Shown one piece after another: positions 7,494 to 43,135 of a DNA stretch of 64,000 bases. This DNA is from Escherichia phage vB_Eco4M-7. Each line of letters starts with the position of its first letter. Positions within the stretch are counted from its first letter, which is position 1. The stretch is from the sequence record MN176217; one strand, written 5' to 3'. A program made the position numbers and the translations under genes. The notes beneath the pieces were generated by a model. It was not told the DNA's origin. It ran no database searches and saw only the letters and a program-made list of their open reading frames with translations.

Positions 7494-9833
7494 TTATTTT
7501 GCTGCTTTCAGCGCGGCTATCTCTGCCTCGAGAACCTCGATGCGGTCCATCAATGCAAGAATAGCCTCGTGGTGCAGTGCTGCTGCTACGCCTGGTGTGT
7601 TGACAGATTTTATGTTATCCAACGTCGAACCGTCGCGCAGAGTAACAGGCGATGACTGTGTTTCAGATACTGCTTCAGGAAAGTCTTTCTCTACATCCTG
7701 GGCGATGAAGCCAAAACCGACGGAGCCATTAGTTTCCAGAGTCCATGCCACGCCTCTAATATTGCGCATCTTGACGAGTGGATCAGTGATCCGCTCAATG
7801 TTACTTTTAATACGTTCATCAGATATACTCCGCCACTCCTGACACCTTGCTATTCCATCGGAGCCAAAAAGATAAGAGGCCGCGCCGCCTGTCCCGCTGT
7901 AAACGTTCAATTGAGCGCGGTCCAGCGCGGTCGTGCTACTCCTTATGCCTCCGAGAATCCAGCTTCCGCTGTACCAGTCACCGCTGATTGAGTTTACAAA
8001 ATTTCCTTCTGGAACGTTGGCATAGTTTTGAATCCTTATGGCGTTGTTTTCTGCAGCAGCAACGCCTACTGAATTAACTGGGGATGCAACAAGGTCTTTA
8101 GACCGGATATATGCATCAACAAATATTGTTCCATCAGGGCGCAGAGTTCCAATCTGGGATGTGGAATTTGGCAACACCAATTTGCCATCTTGGTTAAATG
8201 CCCACTCTTGCACCCCATTAGATATCACCGCACCTTGTTCAGATGTTAATCCATCAATCTTGCCGTATGCCTGCAAGAATGCTTGATACGCGATGTTCGT
8301 GCCAATCTTATATTCAGATTTTACACTACCGCCTCTGACAAGCGTTCCGGTTGCAGGTTTTACTGCGTCACCATTAATGACGCTCCAAGTCGTATTCGCG
8401 GCAACAAATCCACCAGATGCACGAATCACCCAAACACCTTCAAAGGCATTAGGTCGAATTTCATTCGCATCATCACGTCCATAAGCGCCATTTGACAGCG
8501 ATGCATCAAAGTTCACGTCTACATAATAACCATCAGAAGTCCCGCGCATACTTCCAGCAGTTTTTACTATTTTTGGCTCAAATGCGCCATATCCTCGCGT
8601 CACGCCAGAGGTGCCGAATGCAGTAAGCATAGACACATTAGGTGAACCAGAAATATTTGGTGCAGCACTCTGCCTGACACGACCGTCGTTTGAAGATACA
8701 CCTCCATCACCACGCCCGAATAAACCTGGGATTGAGCCTGCTTGAACGCCGTTGCGGTCTGGAACTCGAAATGTAGTTGTGCCGTTGCCTAATGAATACT
8801 TGCCGCGTTTCGCTGGGTCCGCTAACCAATCTGCATCAGCAATAGGCGAAAGCATTTGCGCATATGCCCAAAGTTCAGGCCAATCTGCACGATTGAGTAA
8901 TTGGCCGTCAGAAACGACTTCGTAAGGCTGGATGTAAGCACGACTGTCTCGCAAGTGGAAGTCGCCGACGCCATAGTTCATAACACCGTTCATGCTTGGG
9001 CCAACGGTGCCTGTGTTCACTAAGTTCTCAACCCAACGCTTGGTTGCAGCATCATAATCGTTTACCGGATCACCAGCAAGCGGAGTCGGCCCTTGTGGAC
9101 GAATATTCAACCAAGCTTGAGCATTGTCTGCTGATCCTGTGCCGCCCATTGAAGTTGGAACGATGCTTTGATCAGCGACTTGTCCGAATCCAAAAGCAGA
9201 CTTCATCCCCTGTATGGTAGTTTGACCTGTGCCGCCATTTGCGACTGGTATAACGCTTTGCGTGTTATAAACTTGAACCCAATCAGACCAGGATGATATA
9301 TCGACGCTATACAACCTTTGGTATACTGTGTTTATCCAGTAAGGCGTGTATCTCTGCACACAGCTGTTCGTTGAAACTCCCGTTTGTAAAACTTCAAGTA
9401 TTCCAGCTTGTTCTACAGGATAGTTGAGTGCTGTTGACGCCCCAGCATTAGTCGGTTGGTAATATTGACCGAACCAGCTTCCGTTCAGCGCGTTAAGGTT
9501 TATGCCATTAGGAATTACGCCAAAGTTTCGGACAGTACCCGTCAAAGTCGCGGCAGTAGTTCGAATGGAAAGCATATCACCAGCCGCCCAAGCACGCGCT
9601 GCAGTACCTTCCTGTGCACGCTGCACGGTCAGGACGTTTCCAACAACGGCTGTTACTGTGACGATTTCGAATTGGAGGCCTGTTGCGGCGTCAACGATTG
9701 TCGCCACTACACGCTCGTTTGCGCCCAAGGTCGGAAAGCCCGACCCTGAGCGAATTGTGATTGTGGTGTCTGAAGTCGTCGTTGGCTGAGCGAGCGCGAC
9801 CTCAAAGTTGTTTTTGAATATTAGCCTTGGCAT
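7494..9833 (-). CDS. Tail fibre / tailspike protein with C-terminal intramolecular chaperone (peptidase S74-like) domain
   Basis: 779 aa; G/T/S/N-rich beta-type body; C-terminal SDERIKSNIE motif typical of the auto-cleaving chaperone, followed by a coiled-coil tail. Confidence 0.65.
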   Translation of the reverse strand: MPRLIFKNNFEVALAQPTTTSDTTITIRSGSGFPTLGANERVVATIVDAATGLQFEIVTVTAVVGNVLTVQRAQEGTAARAWAAGDMLSIRTTAATLTGTVRNFGVIPNGINLNALNGSWFGQYYQPTNAGASTALNYPVEQAGILEVLQTGVSTNSCVQRYTPYWINTVYQRLYSVDISSWSDWVQVYNTQSVIPVANGGTGQTTIQGMKSAFGFGQVADQSIVPTSMGGTGSADNAQAWLNIRPQGPTPLAGDPVNDYDAATKRWVENLVNTGTVGPSMNGVMNYGVGDFHLRDSRAYIQPYEVVSDGQLLNRADWPELWAYAQMLSPIADADWLADPAKRGKYSLGNGTTTFRVPDRNGVQAGSIPGLFGRGDGGVSSNDGRVRQSAAPNISGSPNVSMLTAFGTSGVTRGYGAFEPKIVKTAGSMRGTSDGYYVDVNFDASLSNGAYGRDDANEIRPNAFEGVWVIRASGGFVAANTTWSVINGDAVKPATGTLVRGGSVKSEYKIGTNIAYQAFLQAYGKIDGLTSEQGAVISNGVQEWAFNQDGKLVLPNSTSQIGTLRPDGTIFVDAYIRSKDLVASPVNSVGVAAAENNAIRIQNYANVPEGNFVNSISGDWYSGSWILGGIRSSTTALDRAQLNVYSGTGGAASYLFGSDGIARCQEWRSISDERIKSNIERITDPLVKMRNIRGVAWTLETNGSVGFGFIAQDVEKDFPEAVSETQSSPVTLRDGSTLDNIKSVNTPGVAAALHHEAILALMDRIEVLEAEIAALKAAK

Positions 9834-32866: not shown

Positions 32867-33595
32867 ATGATGGCAGAAAAGTTAACCCAACTTACAAGCC
32901 CCAACCAAACTGACAAATCAAGTATGTTTGCCGCGCTGCAGGGAATGCTGGACCGTGGCAAGTATACCACTGACGGCATGATTCCTGCACAAGTAATATC
33001 TTATGACCGCAAACAAAATTTAGCAGTCATAAAGCCTGTTATTCATTTCGTAAGTCTTGATGATAAACCAGTGGAGCGTCAACCTTTGGTGTCAATTCCT
33101 GTATTGGCAATTGGCGGCGGCGGCTTCGTGATCAACTTTCCTTTGAAAGAGGGCGATTTGGGCTGGATATTCGCTGGCGACCGCGAGTTGTCGACATTCC
33201 TTGAAGAATTGAAGCCGACCGCGCCTACCAATGGCCGCGCGAAAACTTTCGCTGATGGACTGTTCATACCGGATGTATTCCGAAAATACACCATAAGCGG
33301 AGAGGATGCAGGCTCAATGGTAATTCAGTCACTCAGCGGCGCTGTACGAATCGCATTAAGTGATGACTCGATAAACATAACTGCATCGGCTGGAGTAAAT
33401 GTGAAAACACCAATAACCACTATCGACCAACAATTGATAGTTAATGGAAAGGCAACGTTCAATGGTGGTATAGAAGGGAAAGAAGGAACGACGGCAACGC
33501 TTCCGACTGGCACAACAATCGGCGGCACAAATGTATCCACTCACGGTCACATAGGTAACGGACCTGGAAACAGAACTGGGGATATGATAGAATGA
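32867..33595 (+). CDS. Baseplate protein (spike / gpV-like candidate)
   Basis: ATG 32867 after TAAGGAG RBS; just upstream of baseplate J. Confidence 0.4.
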   Translation: MMAEKLTQLTSPNQTDKSSMFAALQGMLDRGKYTTDGMIPAQVISYDRKQNLAVIKPVIHFVSLDDKPVERQPLVSIPVLAIGGGGFVINFPLKEGDLGWIFAGDRELSTFLEELKPTAPTNGRAKTFADGLFIPDVFRKYTISGEDAGSMVIQSLSGAVRIALSDDSINITASAGVNVKTPITTIDQQLIVNGKATFNGGIEGKEGTTATLPTGTTIGGTNVSTHGHIGNGPGNRTGDMIE

Positions 33596-34863
33596 GTGCA
33601 CAATATTCTTACATAGTAAGCACTGGTGTAATAACCATCGACACAGCCGATTTGCTGGCTGACGTTCAAAGTGAATGGATTGAGTCATTAGGGGTCGGGC
33701 TTGACGTTGATGCCTCGACACCGCAAGGCACCCTAATCGCAACGGAGACTTTGGCAAGAACTTCAGTGATGAAGAACAACGCCGAGCTGGGAAGTCTCAT
33801 CAACCCAAATTATTCGTATGGCGTATACCTTGATGCCATCGCGGCATTGCTTGGGATTGAGCGAACTAAAAACATCAGCACGATGCTAAAAGGAATTACC
33901 GCAGAAGGAATGCCGCTGTTGGAGATTCCTGCTGGAAGTTTGCTGACGGATTCAAACGGTACATACTGGTATGTTCTGGAAGACGTTCAAATCGCTTCGA
34001 CTGGCAAGACAAGCAATATGACTCTTGCATCAAAAGAGTACGGCTCATTCACTGTTGCGCCTGATGAAGAGTTTACCGTGGTGCAAGGATATGACGTCAT
34101 CGGATGGTCAAGAACGTATTCAACATCAGCAACGACGACCGTACCAGGTACGCAATACATGGGCGACGGAGCGTTAAAGGCCGCTCGCGTTAAGCGCCTT
34201 TACCAGCAGGGAATTGCATCGCTTGGTGCTATTCGCGCTCGCGCCATGTCGGTCGACGGCGTGGAATCGGTTATGGTCGTGGAGAACGACACGGGATTGC
34301 CTGGAACGGTGCGCGGCATCACCTTTTCAACGCCTAACGGTGTCTGGGTGTGCGCAAGCGGAACGTTCGATAAGCAAGTTTTTGCTGAGACTATTTTCAA
34401 GGCAAAGATGGGCGGCCAGCCGTGGGACTTTGGTGCTACCAACCAGGGTGATCCAGTCAACTCGCCTGATGGAATAGAAGTTGTCGACGAAGAATCGCAA
34501 CTGTCTTATTTCGTAAAGTTCAACACTGCTGTCATATATGACTTGTATGTCGATATTACTGTTGTAAGAGGCACCGCAACCGCCGATGCCGAATCTATTA
34601 TTGCCGCTGTGTTGAATTACGGTAATGGAAATTTTAACGGCGAGCAAGGATATGCAGTGGGCCAATCTCAATCTTCTTTTGAGATTGCTTCAGCAGTGTC
34701 TTGCGAGTATCCAGGTCTGTACATTAAAGATTGCAAAATTGCAGCAGTAAAAAGCGGACAGGCAGCGCCAAATTATCCATCCGATTACGGCAGCGAGTGG
34801 ATTGCCAACCCTTGGGATAAGGCGAATACTATGCGCGGCTTCATCAACGTTAAATTTGTGTGA
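33592..34863 (+). CDS. Baseplate J-like protein
   Basis: 423 aa; position and composition typical of baseplate wedge J family. Confidence 0.55.
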   Translation: MSAQYSYIVSTGVITIDTADLLADVQSEWIESLGVGLDVDASTPQGTLIATETLARTSVMKNNAELGSLINPNYSYGVYLDAIAALLGIERTKNISTMLKGITAEGMPLLEIPAGSLLTDSNGTYWYVLEDVQIASTGKTSNMTLASKEYGSFTVAPDEEFTVVQGYDVIGWSRTYSTSATTTVPGTQYMGDGALKAARVKRLYQQGIASLGAIRARAMSVDGVESVMVVENDTGLPGTVRGITFSTPNGVWVCASGTFDKQVFAETIFKAKMGGQPWDFGATNQGDPVNSPDGIEVVDEESQLSYFVKFNTAVIYDLYVDITVVRGTATADAESIIAAVLNYGNGNFNGEQGYAVGQSQSSFEIASAVSCEYPGLYIKDCKIAAVKSGQAAPNYPSDYGSEWIANPWDKANTMRGFINVKFV

Positions 34864-34869
34864 GGAACT

Positions 34870-37608
34870 ATGCAAAAGTTTGACACAAACCTGTTGCAAA
34901 ACCTTAAGTGGATGCAGAACAACGCGCCAAACATCACATCTTTGGTTCAGAAGAAGAGTGACTGGTATGAGCGATATCAAGATCAGTTTTGGATTGACTG
35001 GTACAAGAACATATTCAACATTGATACTTGTGATGCAATGGGCATCTATATTTGGTGTGACATACTATGCATACCAAGGGATTTTGTTGACTTAAGCAAC
35101 TATGAGCACAACTGGGCATTTGGACCCACACGCGACAACTTCGAAGGGCCGGACAATATCGGCGGCAACTTCTTTGGTGCTGGCGGAAAGGTTGTGAAAA
35201 ACATCGAAGAAGCCCGCATCCTTCTGAAGCTTCGTTATCTGACGCTTACAAGTGATGGCCGCATAGAAAGCATCAACCGTATGCTTAAGTGGATTTTCAA
35301 CCGTGGAGAAGATTGGGATTACTCTTCATCGCGCTACGCATATGTGACAGATAATACTCAAGGCGCGGTGTCTTCTTCTGAAGCAACAAACGGCTCATTC
35401 CTTCTGTACGACTGGCAGGGGTCAACTGAGATTCAGCACGATTATAAACAAGTTCTTTTGAGCCACGGCAACAACGCAGGACTTACCATAAGTGGGGTGG
35501 CAGGGACCGTTTCGCGAATGGCACACCCAGACTGGTATTCATGGGGTAATGGTTCCGGCGCTGGTATTGTCGGCGGTGATACACGACAATATGGCGGCCC
35601 TGACTATTACGGCCAACTGTGCGGTGACTACCCAGGAGAGGCCATAGAGAATTTCGCCAACGCAGTACGGGTCATCAAGACCGCTTCCAGCGGCGAGCCT
35701 GTGTATTCTTTGGCCAATAATCCAAGCGCCAAATCTATTGCTCTTCCTTCTCAGGCTGGTGTAAACGTTTGCTATAGCTTCTACATAAAAGTGCTTTCTG
35801 AAAACGTGGCTTCTGTTTCCGTAACAGAGAACAGTGATGCATCGAGTAATGGAAAACTTTTCGACCCAGTGACTGGGCAGTTCAACCTTGACTCTTCTTT
35901 GAGTTATTTCATCACAGGCAAGTTCGACGGTGTGAGAAGGGAATCAAACCGTGGTGGCATCAAGGCAATCGGCGGCGATTGGTACAGAATCTGGATTGTA
36001 GAGCAAACTGCAAACGCGACGGCTGGGGTGAAAACAAGCTTTTCAATTGAGTTGAAAGCAACTGCCGCTGGATCAACCCAGACTCGCGAATTGCCTGAAG
36101 GGTCTGATGCGCTTCTTTTTGGATACTCCATTTGTGTTTGCGACCCTGTTCAAAATCCTAATGGACCTGAGCCTTATTTCTATGGGACTCAAAATCCTCC
36201 TGCAGATGGAACGGCAATCCTGTCTGTTACGGCAGGAACGCTCAACAACATATCTTGCGCAAACGGTCCGTTGACAACAAGGGATGGCGTGGTAGGTGAA
36301 TCATTCATGCAGCCTGGTTCATCGCTTGCATACTCTGGTTCAATCGACGGCTACCCGTACCCAGGAAACGCAACATTGATTGCAGAGACTGACGGCATCA
36401 GACGCTCATGGAACGTTAGCCGATTGGACGGCGTACCGCCGCCGCCGACCGCTGACTATTACATGGAATATGTCATCGGGCCTTATTTCGCCAACAACTT
36501 ATCCGACAACTTTAAGACGCTAGTTGGCGACAGGAATGAAGGATTCTTGCCAGCAAATGCCGGAATACGTTGGCAGCTTTACCAAGAAGTCGCAGACTTA
36601 TCTGATATTGATTTGACTGTCAGCAACATAACAGACACGCGAGTAGGATTCGAAACGGAAGGTGTCGCATGGATTAACACTGACGGCATCATCAGAGTTG
36701 GCGGCATAAACGAGTGGCCGTTGAACAACTTCAAAGGTGTTATACGACAGCTTGAATCTTTGAAAGGTGTGAACCAAGTTATCGACGGCGCACTTGTCAA
36801 CGACTATTCAATCTCAAAAGCATCAAGAGATGACTTTGGTCGTGAAATCCCACGTGCCGCGATCACAAACTACTGGCGATACACACAACCCAATGACGGC
36901 ACATCTTTTGGCAATATCGTCAAGGACGGAGATAACACGGTAACGGCGACGCCAATCAGCGGTGTGCCCAACCAGTTCCCATCATTCAAGCTTTCCGCTA
37001 CAATAGGGACTGTGCCAGCATCCGGCTATGCACGTGCTGTACTTGCTACTAAATACACTGGCAACCTGACTGGTCCTTTGTCATTTATCGCAATAGTTAA
37101 AAACAACACGGTAAACGGTCAAAAACTTTTCGTAACCGTACCGGATGGTATGGGCGGCTATATCCCTAAATTCTACAGCATAGGCGCAGGTGATTTGCAA
37201 CGTATCGAAATTGACCTTGCCGCTGAGATTGTTGCAGGAACGACTTGGGATGGTTCGACAGGTGGAATCAGCATTGGTTTGATATCAGGGAAAGACTTGC
37301 CGACCGAAGTTGGTACGACTCTTGAACTTGATATTTTAAGCTTGATGCTTGTTTCTGGTAATACGATGAATGCGCTTGCGATTTCAACAAGCGAAGACTT
37401 TGCAAAGAAAACTGCAACTTCTATATACATCAAAAACCCAGGGTCACTGGCGACTGGAGTTCAATTGATAGCTTCGAATGGGGATGTTGTAGCGACAGTA
37501 AACTTTCCAAGAAGTGCTGCTGGCGGTTATGTTTCAAGCATGAATATAACTGACTTAACTGGTGATTGGGCATCAACCCTTTTATCAAAAATTAAATACA
37601 TCGTGTAG
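34870..37608 (+). CDS. Large tail fibre / baseplate wedge protein
   Basis: 912 aa, G/T/S/N-rich, between baseplate J and distal fibre gene. Confidence 0.5.
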   Translation: MQKFDTNLLQNLKWMQNNAPNITSLVQKKSDWYERYQDQFWIDWYKNIFNIDTCDAMGIYIWCDILCIPRDFVDLSNYEHNWAFGPTRDNFEGPDNIGGNFFGAGGKVVKNIEEARILLKLRYLTLTSDGRIESINRMLKWIFNRGEDWDYSSSRYAYVTDNTQGAVSSSEATNGSFLLYDWQGSTEIQHDYKQVLLSHGNNAGLTISGVAGTVSRMAHPDWYSWGNGSGAGIVGGDTRQYGGPDYYGQLCGDYPGEAIENFANAVRVIKTASSGEPVYSLANNPSAKSIALPSQAGVNVCYSFYIKVLSENVASVSVTENSDASSNGKLFDPVTGQFNLDSSLSYFITGKFDGVRRESNRGGIKAIGGDWYRIWIVEQTANATAGVKTSFSIELKATAAGSTQTRELPEGSDALLFGYSICVCDPVQNPNGPEPYFYGTQNPPADGTAILSVTAGTLNNISCANGPLTTRDGVVGESFMQPGSSLAYSGSIDGYPYPGNATLIAETDGIRRSWNVSRLDGVPPPPTADYYMEYVIGPYFANNLSDNFKTLVGDRNEGFLPANAGIRWQLYQEVADLSDIDLTVSNITDTRVGFETEGVAWINTDGIIRVGGINEWPLNNFKGVIRQLESLKGVNQVIDGALVNDYSISKASRDDFGREIPRAAITNYWRYTQPNDGTSFGNIVKDGDNTVTATPISGVPNQFPSFKLSATIGTVPASGYARAVLATKYTGNLTGPLSFIAIVKNNTVNGQKLFVTVPDGMGGYIPKFYSIGAGDLQRIEIDLAAEIVAGTTWDGSTGGISIGLISGKDLPTEVGTTLELDILSLMLVSGNTMNALAISTSEDFAKKTATSIYIKNPGSLATGVQLIASNGDVVATVNFPRSAAGGYVSSMNITDLTGDWASTLLSKIKYIV

Positions 37609-37618
37609 AGGAACGGCA

Positions 37619-39406
37619 ATGCCAACACTTATTAACAGACCTTTCGCGCAAAGCGGTGATGTATCCGTGGTGCCGGATGCAAGTCCAAGCGGTTATGTGA
37701 ACTTCCAGCGCGGCTACACCCCTGACTATGCACTTGCGCTGGAAGCCGGAAACGTCGCCGCGAAAGCAGTTGAACGTGAGTCGATGAACTGGTTGCTGAA
37801 TCTGATCACCGACAACCTTATGTTCATCCAGGACCACGGCGCTCAACAGTATTTCTCGTCTGACTTGAAGCCAGATGGATACCCGAAAAATGCCATCGTT
37901 GTCAGCAACTCTGGCACCCCTTCAGCGCCTGAATGGCGCATTTTCCAGAGTGCGGTAGACGGCAACACCAGCGCAGTCCCAGCTAACGGCGAAACGGAAT
38001 CTTGGCAGGAATTGACGCTGCCTAGCGAAGCGAGAAAATATATTCCTATGCCTGCTGGCGGCGATGCGCAAAACCCGTATTTTGTTCGCGGACTGATTTC
38101 AAACTTTGTGGACTTTGATAATATCACGACTTCCACAACTATTGTCATTCAATCTGATGCCGTTGCCGCTCTCTGCTCTAATATCCCGAACGCGGTTGGT
38201 GCGACGAAGGTTGCAGGTCGTCTCCAGGTTTGCGCTTGGCAGGTTAATGCGCAGACTTTCGCCCTGCAGCAATACACGTCAATGAACGGATATGTTTTCA
38301 CCCGCTCTTATACTTCTGGTGCTTGGAGTACCTGGATTCAAAATGCTACTGTTCAAGACGTGCAAATTGGAACGCCGAATCTTGCATCAGGTAAAGGCGC
38401 ACAAGATATAATCCTTACCGTTCCAGCAGGTTATTCATGGCCTCCGTCAGCAGGTAGTCGCCTGACCATCGTTAATGATGTCACGACCACCGGACCTGTC
38501 ACCGTGACCATTGGTGCAAACAAAGTTGCAGTCCTTGGATTCGACGGCGGCGAGCTGCCAGCAGGGTCCATCGTCGGTCTTCTTCCTTTTACTATTATTT
38601 ATGACGGCACCGTTTGGCGTCTTCTTCAAGCATTCGGCGCGGCGCAAATCGGTGTCGATGCTAGTGAGCCGCAACAGTTTGTCACAAAGCGCCAACTCGA
38701 TGCTTTGGCCGCGAAGTTGATAACTATGGGTGATGTATTCGAAGTCGGTGAGACTCGATTCTTGACTAATGGCACAAACCCAAATACTAAACTGGGCGCT
38801 TACGGTCAGGTGTGGACCAGATTGCCTGACAACATGGTCATCAGGACGTCTGGCACGGCAAGAAACGGTCTTGACACTGGAGGTGCAGACTCTGTTACTC
38901 TTACCGCCGCCATGCTTCCTCTGCACAATCACAGCGTTAACATAACTACGCGACAGAGTGGTCCATGGTCCAATACCACTGGAGACGCAGGCAACCATAA
39001 CCACACAGGCGATACCAGTCAAAACGGTGCTCACGTGCACGGAATGGATTCAGCAGGCAACCACCACCATGACAGTAGCTGGGGTGAATCGAATACGAAT
39101 GATGCGCGGTATGGCGTGTATGATGGGACGCACAACAACTTCGGAAGTCGAAAGGGCGGCGACTGGGACAACTATAAATACAACACCTCAACTAACGGCA
39201 ACCACGTTCACAATATTCAATCTTCTGGGTCACACACTCATGGGTTGAATATAAATTACGCTGGCAATCACAGCCATGGATATACCCTCCCCGCTCACAC
39301 TCACGATGTGGTCGGTAACACTGGCAATGCAGGGCAGTCCGTCCCAACGGCTGTTTCAACTCTGCCGCGATATGTCGTCTTGAACGGCTGGTACAGAAGC
39401 GCATAA
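37619..39406 (+). CDS. Tail fibre protein with His-rich HxH repeat tip
   Basis: C-terminal repeats NHNHTG, AHVHG, NHHHD, NHVHN, SHTHG, NHSHG, AHTHD, as in metal-binding fibre tips. Confidence 0.6.
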   Translation: MPTLINRPFAQSGDVSVVPDASPSGYVNFQRGYTPDYALALEAGNVAAKAVERESMNWLLNLITDNLMFIQDHGAQQYFSSDLKPDGYPKNAIVVSNSGTPSAPEWRIFQSAVDGNTSAVPANGETESWQELTLPSEARKYIPMPAGGDAQNPYFVRGLISNFVDFDNITTSTTIVIQSDAVAALCSNIPNAVGATKVAGRLQVCAWQVNAQTFALQQYTSMNGYVFTRSYTSGAWSTWIQNATVQDVQIGTPNLASGKGAQDIILTVPAGYSWPPSAGSRLTIVNDVTTTGPVTVTIGANKVAVLGFDGGELPAGSIVGLLPFTIIYDGTVWRLLQAFGAAQIGVDASEPQQFVTKRQLDALAAKLITMGDVFEVGETRFLTNGTNPNTKLGAYGQVWTRLPDNMVIRTSGTARNGLDTGGADSVTLTAAMLPLHNHSVNITTRQSGPWSNTTGDAGNHNHTGDTSQNGAHVHGMDSAGNHHHDSSWGESNTNDARYGVYDGTHNNFGSRKGGDWDNYKYNTSTNGNHVHNIQSSGSHTHGLNINYAGNHSHGYTLPAHTHDVVGNTGNAGQSVPTAVSTLPRYVVLNGWYRSA

Positions 39407-39414
39407 GGTGATTT

Positions 39415-40059
39415 ATGATTAATGCAAACGTAATATCTAAAGGGACCGGATGCAGCATGGATGTCGCAGAGGAGTGGGTGGACCCTTTCAAGCAGGCTTG
39501 TGAGCACTACGGAATCAAAAGCAAGAATGCCATCGCGGCGCTGCTTGCAAACGTAGGAGTGGAAACAGGCAGTCTGAAGACCTTTGTGGAAAACTTGAAC
39601 TACTCCGCTCAAGGTCTTGCGAATACATGGCCTAGCCGTTACAGCGCCAGCGGTCGTTTCGGCGGCGCACCAAACTCCTTGGCACTGTCGATTGCCCGTA
39701 AACCAATGGAAATCGCCAATAATACATATGCAAACCGAATGGGCAATGGTTCGGTAGCATCTGGCGACGGTTGGAAGTACCGTGGCCGTGGTGCCATTCA
39801 GCTGACTGGAAAGGCCAACTATGCAGAGTATTCAAAGCAATCAGGGTATGACGCATTGAATAACCCTGACATTTTGACTGAGCCGAAATACATCGCTGAC
39901 AGCGCGGCATGGTTTTTCAAGAACAGCGGTTGCATTCCACTTGCTGATGCTGGCGCATTTGATTCGACTGTGAAGCGGATTAACGGGGCCGCGCCAAATA
40001 CGGCTAACCATGGGGATTTGCGACGGAAGCGTTACAAGGATGCACTAGCAGTTGTGTAA
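39415..40059 (+). CDS. Endolysin, glycoside hydrolase family 19-like
   Basis: Motifs LLANVGVETGSL and YRGRGAIQLTGKANY. Confidence 0.75.
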   Translation: MINANVISKGTGCSMDVAEEWVDPFKQACEHYGIKSKNAIAALLANVGVETGSLKTFVENLNYSAQGLANTWPSRYSASGRFGGAPNSLALSIARKPMEIANNTYANRMGNGSVASGDGWKYRGRGAIQLTGKANYAEYSKQSGYDALNNPDILTEPKYIADSAAWFFKNSGCIPLADAGAFDSTVKRINGAAPNTANHGDLRRKRYKDALAVV

Positions 40060-40060
40060 G

Positions 40061-40091
40061 AAAAAGGCCCATATGGGCCTTTGTTTATTTT
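40061..40091. terminator. Bidirectional rho-independent terminator (AGGCCCATATGGGCCT flanked by A and T tracts)
   Basis: Perfect palindromic stem with T-rich tails on both strands at the junction of convergent modules. Confidence 0.65.
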
Positions 40092-42619: not shown

Positions 42620-43135
42620 TTATTTTTCCTTTGATGCATTGAATTGATCGATTTTTATTTTAGCCTGATTATAAGTATCAATCAAGCTATTAACTTTCTC
42701 TTTTAATCGATTTGTTTCTGCGGCGAACTGAACAAGAAATCTGACATCCTCTTCTGATAGTCCACAGTTTCCTTCTGGGATAGAGAGGCGTCCAGTGGTC
42801 GCAGAGTCGGGCACACTCCTGAGTAACTCACGGGAACAGCTGAGTTGCTCGCGCAACTTGACATTCCCAGACTTGTAACGAGCAATAGTGTCATCAGCAA
42901 CCAGTTGCGCTTCCTGGCGACCCTTCTCATATGCCGATGCCGATTCAACCTGTAAAGTTGCAATTTGCTCTTCGAGTGCATTTATCTTGTCCTTACGCTC
43001 ATTAAGCGATGTCAGATATTGATTATCCTTGGCCAGTGATGCGTTGGTTTGCTGCAGGTCTTCAACGTATGATCCAGCGGCAAATGCGCCAACAAGGGCC
43101 AGAATCTTCAGGAGCGGTACAATTCTTTCTATCAT
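42620..43135 (-). CDS. Membrane-anchored coiled-coil protein (i-spanin / Rz-like)
   Basis: N-terminal TM helix, heptad-rich body, nested out-of-frame ORF with signal peptide. Confidence 0.35.
   Translation of the reverse strand: MIERIVPLLKILALVGAFAAGSYVEDLQQTNASLAKDNQYLTSLNERKDKINALEEQIATLQVESASAYEKGRQEAQLVADDTIARYKSGNVKLREQLSCSRELLRSVPDSATTGRLSIPEGNCGLSEEDVRFLVQFAAETNRLKEKVNSLIDTYNQAKIKIDQFNASKEK
42703..42930 (-). CDS. Nested out-of-frame small protein with signal peptide and Cys (o-spanin / Rz1-like candidate)
   Basis: MRRVARKRNWLLMTLLLVTSLGMSSC... entirely inside 42620..43135 in another frame. Confidence 0.25.
   Translation of the reverse strand: MRRVARKRNWLLMTLLLVTSLGMSSCASNSAVPVSYSGVCPTLRPLDASLSQKETVDYQKRMSDFLFSSPQKQID

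Follow-up and report, generated by a model that had tools for sequence, protein, structure and literature searches.

A genus-conserved Wifcevirus fibre assigned a T4 gp37-type HxH tip by homology, with variation concentrated in a small distal head

The window analysed here, a stretch of 64,000 nucleotides from Escherichia phage vB_Eco4M-7 (sequence record MN176217), contains a fibre gene set between a baseplate wedge gene and an endolysin gene, and a second fibre gene on the other strand. The genes on which the analysis bears are the following.

33592–34863, Baseplate_J protein, a neighbouring gene
34870–37608, plus strand, baseplate wedge protein of 912 residues (Pfam DUF2612/Phage_Wedge1)
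37619–39406, plus strand, fibre gene, complete in the list of open reading frames (595 residues plus stop)
39415–40059, GH19 endolysin, the downstream neighbour of the fibre gene
7494–9833, minus strand, S74 fibre of 779 residues with a Peptidase_S74 intramolecular chaperone (Pfam PF13884, E 2e-11)

The fibre reading frame starts at the ATG at 37619, which lies 10 nucleotides past the stop of the upstream gene and follows a GAGG Shine–Dalgarno sequence (37608–37611) at a 7-nucleotide spacing; the resulting start, MPTLINRP, is shared by every annotated orthologue. A GTG at 37562 is ruled out as the start codon, as it overlaps the preceding gene, is used in none of the annotations, all of which begin at the ATG, and is not the codon that the Shine–Dalgarno sequence precedes. 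The order of wedge, fibre and endolysin genes is kept in metagenomic relatives (L016 and L017, 32–54% identity), and a terminator-like hairpin (40063–40082) follows the endolysin.

Over its 1,788 nucleotides the gene is 100% identical to that of Escherichia phage vB_Eco4M-7n (PP596836), where the product is labelled ‘hypothetical protein’; the assignment given here corrects this label in the phage’s GenBank record and supplies a domain map with coordinates. The gene is found in 28 Wifcevirus records, 27 of which carry it full length at 86.6–100% nucleotide identity; among the other Wifcevirus records, 26 span the whole gene and one spans 80% of it (86.6–98.4%). From its position in Table 1 of PMC11074155 we infer that the fibre is gp63 of vB_Eco4M-7, and by position it corresponds to Gp32 of phage Bas99, as named in the BASEL publication (PMC11990801). 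Position 37619 of the window is position 34577 of PP596836 (68,194 bp); this offset of 3,042 nucleotides places the start of the window ahead of the first base of that record, which implies that this copy of the genome is circularly permuted or was opened at a different point.

The fibre protein is divided into six segments, all encoded on the plus strand.

37619–38734 (residues 1–372), N-terminal baseplate anchor and beaded β-sheet shaft of the Pbunavirus fibre type
38735–38917 (residues 373–433), N-terminal portion of the collar, with the motif TGGADSVTLTAAMLP at its end running into the first HxH
38918–39070 (residues 434–484), descending needle strand with HxH 1–4 (H436/438, H460/462, H472/474, H482/484)
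39071–39202 (residues 485–528), head, forming the distal tip and the surface presumed to contact the receptor, aromatic-rich and without HxH
39203–39307 (residues 529–563), ascending needle strand with HxH 5–8 (H529/531, H539/541, H551/553, H560/562), aligning with the T4 gp37 HxH block at 966–998
39308–39403 (residues 564–595), return to the collar with the conserved terminus LNGWYRSA, aligning with the C terminus of T4 gp37 (FNYIVRLA)

A closely similar ending, LMGWYRSA, is common to many homologues. In a monomer AlphaFold2 prediction the collar part is the best predicted, at a moderate level (pLDDT 59–87 by 10-residue block), with the needle and head below 50. The full-length monomer model, built from five sequences, has a pLDDT of 42.3 and is uninformative, and fold searches returned nothing significant.

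Exactly eight HxH triplets occur in the 595-residue product, at residues 436, 460, 472, 482, 529, 539, 551 and 560, four on either side of a 44-residue stretch that has none. Together they span residues 436–562 (127 residues, window 38924–39304), a region that holds 18 of the 19 histidines of the protein, so that the initial annotation, which had counted eight or more triplets within about 120 residues, was accurate. When the composition of the C-terminal 175 residues was kept and their order shuffled 20,000 times, a mean of 1.75 and a maximum of 7 triplets arose; as no shuffle reached eight, the arrangement is non-random and more than a consequence of histidine-rich composition. None of the 16 motif histidines changes across 13 Wifcevirus sequences (the window and 12 orthologues, 94.6–99% amino acid identity), among which the two non-motif histidines, His483 in the middle of an HHH and His505 in the head, are variable. 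The 16 are invariant also in three metagenomic full-length homologues (P0010–P0012; 55, 50 and 32–37% identity). Loss of these residues in homologues had been named beforehand as grounds for giving up the idea of a metal-binding tip, and with 16 of 16 retained the idea survives.

Homology of the C-terminal region to the tip of the T4 long tail fibre is found at the level of profiles. A profile of the 35-sequence C-terminal family aligns by hhalign with T4 gp37 residues 785–1026 (probability 99.3%, E 2.8e-20, 179 columns), the match covering gp37 812–1026 and with it the collar, both HxH blocks and the C-terminal strand; residues 373–433 here align from gp37 812 onward. Because this alignment takes in the non-repeat collar and C terminus, the homology rests on more than biased repeats. 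A profile of nine trimmed homologues, run against the PDB with hmmsearch, matches the T4 gp37 tip (2XGF, E 9.5e-9), and also an entry described as ‘long tail fiber’ (8kec, E 1.2e-4) and, weakly, gp10 (2fkk, E 0.45).

Against the PDB, only a family profile succeeded for this region. The C-terminal 226 residues gave 0 matches in the PDB by direct phmmer at E ≤ 10, and Pfam searches with the query found no family, whether with the full protein (E ≤ 0.1) or with the C terminus (E ≤ 1), the sequence lying below the gathering thresholds of Collar, Gp10_C and Phage_fiber. Homologues P0001–P0008 and T4 gp37 do match the Gp10_C (PF21939), Collar (PF07484) and Phage_fiber (PF03335) models, the first two over the part corresponding to the collar. 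A word-indexed homologue search returned 8 proteins only and missed the orthologues, which were recovered by an exhaustive HMM search and by tblastn. The homologues are tail fibre proteins of 257–323 residues, those with names coming from Xenorhabdus and Izhakiella.

On this evidence it is very improbable that the HxH triplets simply reflect composition or low complexity and correspond to no metal-binding needle. Gly, Asn, Ser, Thr and His are abundant in the region, and the query by itself finds nothing in direct Pfam and PDB searches, but eight triplets do not arise by shuffling, the motif histidines are held where adjacent residues vary, and the profile homology to 2XGF runs from end to end through non-repeat parts as well. 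Residues 373–595 are accordingly described here, as shown by homology, as a putative T4 gp37-type receptor-binding tip. The earlier suggestion of a metal-coordinating HxH tip of the T4 long-fibre kind is thereby supported at the level of sequence, the profile match to the T4 gp37 tip extending through the entire module.

In T4, the chain of the tip passes from a collar into a needle, turns round at the head and returns, so that the needle has six strands; iron is coordinated along it by seven HxH motifs, and the gp37 head contacts the receptor (PMC12609058). The likeness to 2XGF extends to the order of parts, in which the chain leaves the collar, descends through HxH, forms the head, ascends through HxH and ends in the collar. 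Two HxH blocks surround a small HxH-free head at the C terminus in both proteins, 4+4 here and 3+4 in T4, where the motifs stand at 883, 915 and 929 and at 966, 980, 989 and 998. The spacer between the flanking motifs is 44 residues here and 34 in T4 gp37, with heads unrelated in sequence. The two tips also differ in what carries them: here it is a 372-residue baseplate-anchored shaft, whereas the T4 tip ends a four-protein, 1026-residue distal half-fibre.

Modules of this kind are widespread, with 6,368 representative clusters at E ≤ 1e-10 and 23,050 at E ≤ 1e-3, the latter an upper bound owing to compositional bias; the placing of the present fibre in this family depends on profiles drawn from a repeat region biased towards His, Gly, Ser and Thr. 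Among the proteins retrieved, 132 full-length module matches contain 2–9 HxH per module, and in 117 of these 132 relatives the module lies at the C terminus. A parallel in design is provided by the long and short tail fibres of Felixounavirus (Felix O1 ‘GP37’; Bas63 gp26 and gp27), which are about 30% identical over the whole 226-residue tip; by cryo-EM, both have the collar, HxH needle and head, with six or seven HxH (PMC12609058). Their N-terminal baseplate-binding domain and shaft are other than those found here, and the HxH tip is present on both Felixounavirus fibres but on one of the two Wifcevirus fibres. The C-terminal domain of T4 gp10 is a related collar-type domain. No significant direct match was found between the fibre tip and the T4 short fibre gp12, which has one zinc site of the HxH type and lacks a long needle; as a conserved, baseplate-committing fibre, gp12 is a possible functional analogue.

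At the opposite end of the protein is a baseplate anchor. Residues 2–372 match residues 4–368 of the tail fibre gp47 of phage Pa193 (PDB 9b45, chain 2; phmmer E 6e-32), and tblastn of the anchor finds 291 Pseudomonas phage records in addition to phages of Burkholderia, Serratia and Xanthomonas. Residues 1–340 of Pa193 gp47 form three β-sheet beads, and its loops 38–52 dock 3:1 on the attachment loop of the wedge protein gp46 (PMC11456595). The gene just upstream of the fibre provides the counterpart: residues 4–186 of the 912-residue wedge protein, and these only, match Pa193 gp46 (‘baseplate wedge 2’ of 9b45, E 1e-41) and E217 gp45 (E 3.5e-41). The N terminus of the wedge protein is thus homologous to gp46, the Pa193 subunit bearing the fibre-attachment loop. 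Given a gp47-like N terminus and a gp46-like upstream gene, the fibre is a single-chain, baseplate-anchored fibre rather than a distal subunit, and the name ‘distal tail fibre’ given to it at first is wrong, there being no proximal partner for a Pbunavirus-type anchor.

Beyond residue 186 the wedge protein continues for about 720 residues that have no significant Pfam match, whereas Pa193 gp46 and E217 gp45 are about 500 residues in all, and its homologues in distant relatives are 578 and 1082 residues long. Since the gp46-like match is limited to residues 4–186, this wedge subunit carries a long, variable C-terminal extension, which might provide a dock for the second fibre or be a binding module in its own right.

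Fibres of Pbunavirus (Pa193 gp47 and PB10 gp62) and of the Serratia phage MyoSmar have a homologous anchor and shaft, and in PB10 and MyoSmar the fibre gene likewise lies between the wedge gene and an endolysin gene. The fibres of these two phages (962 and 730 residues, respectively) contain zero HxH, and their C termini are unrelated to the tip described here. The shared anchor, combined with HxH-free C termini in PB10 and MyoSmar, leads us to conclude that the tip has been swapped on a conserved anchor.

The presence of a gp37-like tip on this fibre is already known from an orthologue. In Humolli et al. (PLoS Biol 2025, PMC11990801), Gp32 of Bas99 (ManiWeber) is described as a ‘second tail fiber’ with an elongated T4 gp37-like tip and conserved HxH, on the basis of an AlphaFold-Multimer model; the same text describes this type of fibre as highly conserved in Wifcevirus and suggests ‘a more mechanical role’ for it. 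The Bas99 orthologue (locus tag Bas99_0031) is 95.6% identical in amino acid sequence, of the same length class and at the same locus. It differs in the head, where Bas99 has allele B and the window allele A, at about 69% nucleotide identity. Head-restricted mosaicism goes unmentioned in the available part of that publication (PMC11990801). The HxH tip is therefore real but ordinary, and the current understanding of phage fibres, in which HxH needle tips are widespread, is unchanged by it; variation restricted to the head of an otherwise strongly conserved gene is a small addition to the known picture.

This variation is sharply bounded. Among 13 Wifcevirus sequences, 34% of the columns in the head (residues 485–528) are variable, compared with 9% overall, and relative to the window the sequences diverge on average by 16.5% in the head and 3.6% overall. 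In comparison with phage WFC, nucleotide identity is 98.1% upstream of the head, 75.2% in the head and 99.5% downstream, with the divergent tract, of about 150 nucleotides, at about 39030–39180. When vB_Eco4M-7n is compared with WFC and Bas99, identity across 39030–39200 is 69–75%, against 94–99.5% on the flanks. Synonymous sites diverge along with the others: dN is 0.114 in the head and 0.013 in the rest of the gene, dS is 1.12 and 0.42, and dN/dS in the head is about 0.1. This pattern points to a tip cassette exchanged by recombination, rather than to local positive selection, as judged from the alignments. Elsewhere, tail fibres encoded in the genomes of Xenorhabdus and Photorhabdus have a head 60–65% identical to this one on collars that are only about 36% identical, and in homologue P0010 the collar is 72% identical and the head unrelated. 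The head thus looks like a recombining cassette, also in the Xenorhabdus and Photorhabdus fibres. Three head alleles (A, B and C) occur in the genus, and they do not match host serotype: phages with A and C infect O157:H7, and phages with A and B infect K-12(O16) and S. flexneri.

The other fibre of the phage was expected from the initial annotation, which had proposed the HxH fibre as a second fibre besides one with an S74 domain; the Peptidase_S74 match at 7494–9833 on the minus strand agrees with this. The S74 fibre is a mosaic, being covered to at least 80% in 3 of 38 phage records, most of which share only the N-terminal 47%. Over nucleotides 1389–2288 its gene shares about 74% identity with fibre genes of T5-like phages (vB_EcoS_FFH_1 and phiAPCEc03). 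From this 3′ match, and from the sharing of the first 47% only, it follows that the receptor-binding part has been exchanged across morphotypes.

Infection by vB_Eco4M-7 requires the O157 antigen, and resistant mutants map only to LPS synthesis; in that study the 779-residue gp27 ‘tail fiber’ and the 912-residue gp62 were tagged, and the 595-residue fibre lay outside its scope (PMC11074155). Phages Bas98–101 are, according to Humolli et al., totally dependent on the O16 antigen (PMC11990801). These observations bear on whether the HxH fibre is an independent primary determinant of host range, on a par with the S74 fibre. A gp37-type tip is present, such a tip sets host range in T4, and the genus has three head alleles, yet the head evolves under purifying selection (dN/dS about 0.1), its alleles are uncorrelated with host serotype, loss of the O antigen alone abolishes infection (PMC11074155 and PMC11990801), and the hypervariable fibre is the S74 fibre. 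Such a role is improbable.

A purely structural or mechanical fibre, which would space or steady the baseplate with no specific receptor, accords with much of the same evidence: the protein keeps 94.6–99% amino acid identity across phages from O157, O16-restored K-12 and Shigella, its head alleles have no link to the host, and resistance arises only from LPS-synthesis mutants (PMC11074155). Against it stand the roughly fourfold concentration of variation in the 44-residue head, a segment swapped by recombination, and the occurrence of a like head in Xenorhabdus and Photorhabdus genomes, where the fibre bodies are unrelated; variation and recurrence are both what is usual for a module that contacts a ligand. 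In T4, moreover, the homologous gp37 head contacts the receptor (PMC12609058). We regard a solely mechanical role as rather unlikely.

As a whole, the gene probably encodes a genus-conserved, baseplate-attached Wifcevirus fibre with a T4 gp37-type tip, with a role in recognizing a conserved part of the envelope and committing the baseplate. By homology to Pa193, residues 1–372 would attach as a trimer to the product of the adjacent upstream wedge gene. Below this shaft, if the T4 structure is a guide, three chains would form the collar, and each chain would run down with HxH 1–4, turn through the 44-residue head and return with HxH 5–8, the strands of the three chains building a six-stranded needle, as homology and the published multimer model of the orthologue also suggest. 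Each HxH would contribute, from three chains, six histidines to one metal ion on the threefold axis, giving up to eight ions here, compared with seven iron ions in T4. This column of metal would stiffen and stabilize the needle, and the head would touch the cell surface. Conservation of the fibre and its attachment to the wedge suggest that it reads a conserved envelope feature and helps to commit or trigger the baseplate, with the variable S74 fibre reading the O antigen. That the HxH fibre acts as a second reader of receptors and is no inert strut, with its head as an exchangeable cassette directed at an envelope structure conserved in Enterobacterales, for instance the LPS inner core, we put forward as a tentative proposal with a low probability of being correct.

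Coupled to this proposal, and as doubtful in conjunction with it, is the idea that an eight-site metal needle might fold without a phage-encoded chaperone of the gp38 type. The endolysin begins 8 nucleotides past the fibre stop (39406–39415) with no gene between, and no tail-fibre assembly or chaperone gene of the gp38 type is annotated after the HxH fibre in Wifcevirus records or in distant relatives. T4 gp37, by contrast, has gp38 directly downstream, with a further chaperone, gp57A, encoded elsewhere, and MyoSmar has a λ Tfa-like assembly gene after its fibre.

Phage vB_Eco4M-7 serves in the detection and biocontrol of O157. For its engineering, the analysis tells the conserved fibre from the variable one and points to a candidate exchangeable head at 39071–39202, on a needle predicted to depend on the 16 invariant histidines.

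Two further features of the region downstream were observed. The endolysin slot after the fibre varies by clade: GH19 occupies it here, and in the two metagenomic relatives it contains, respectively, a GH108 plus PG_binding_3 protein (L016, 7919–8470) and an unrecognised 150-residue protein (L017, 7798–8250). Further along, a 92-residue reading frame (42703–42981) lies wholly within a 171-residue reading frame (42620–43135) in another frame on the minus strand, at the spot where Wifcevirus records annotate an Rz-like i-spanin with an o-spanin nested in it.
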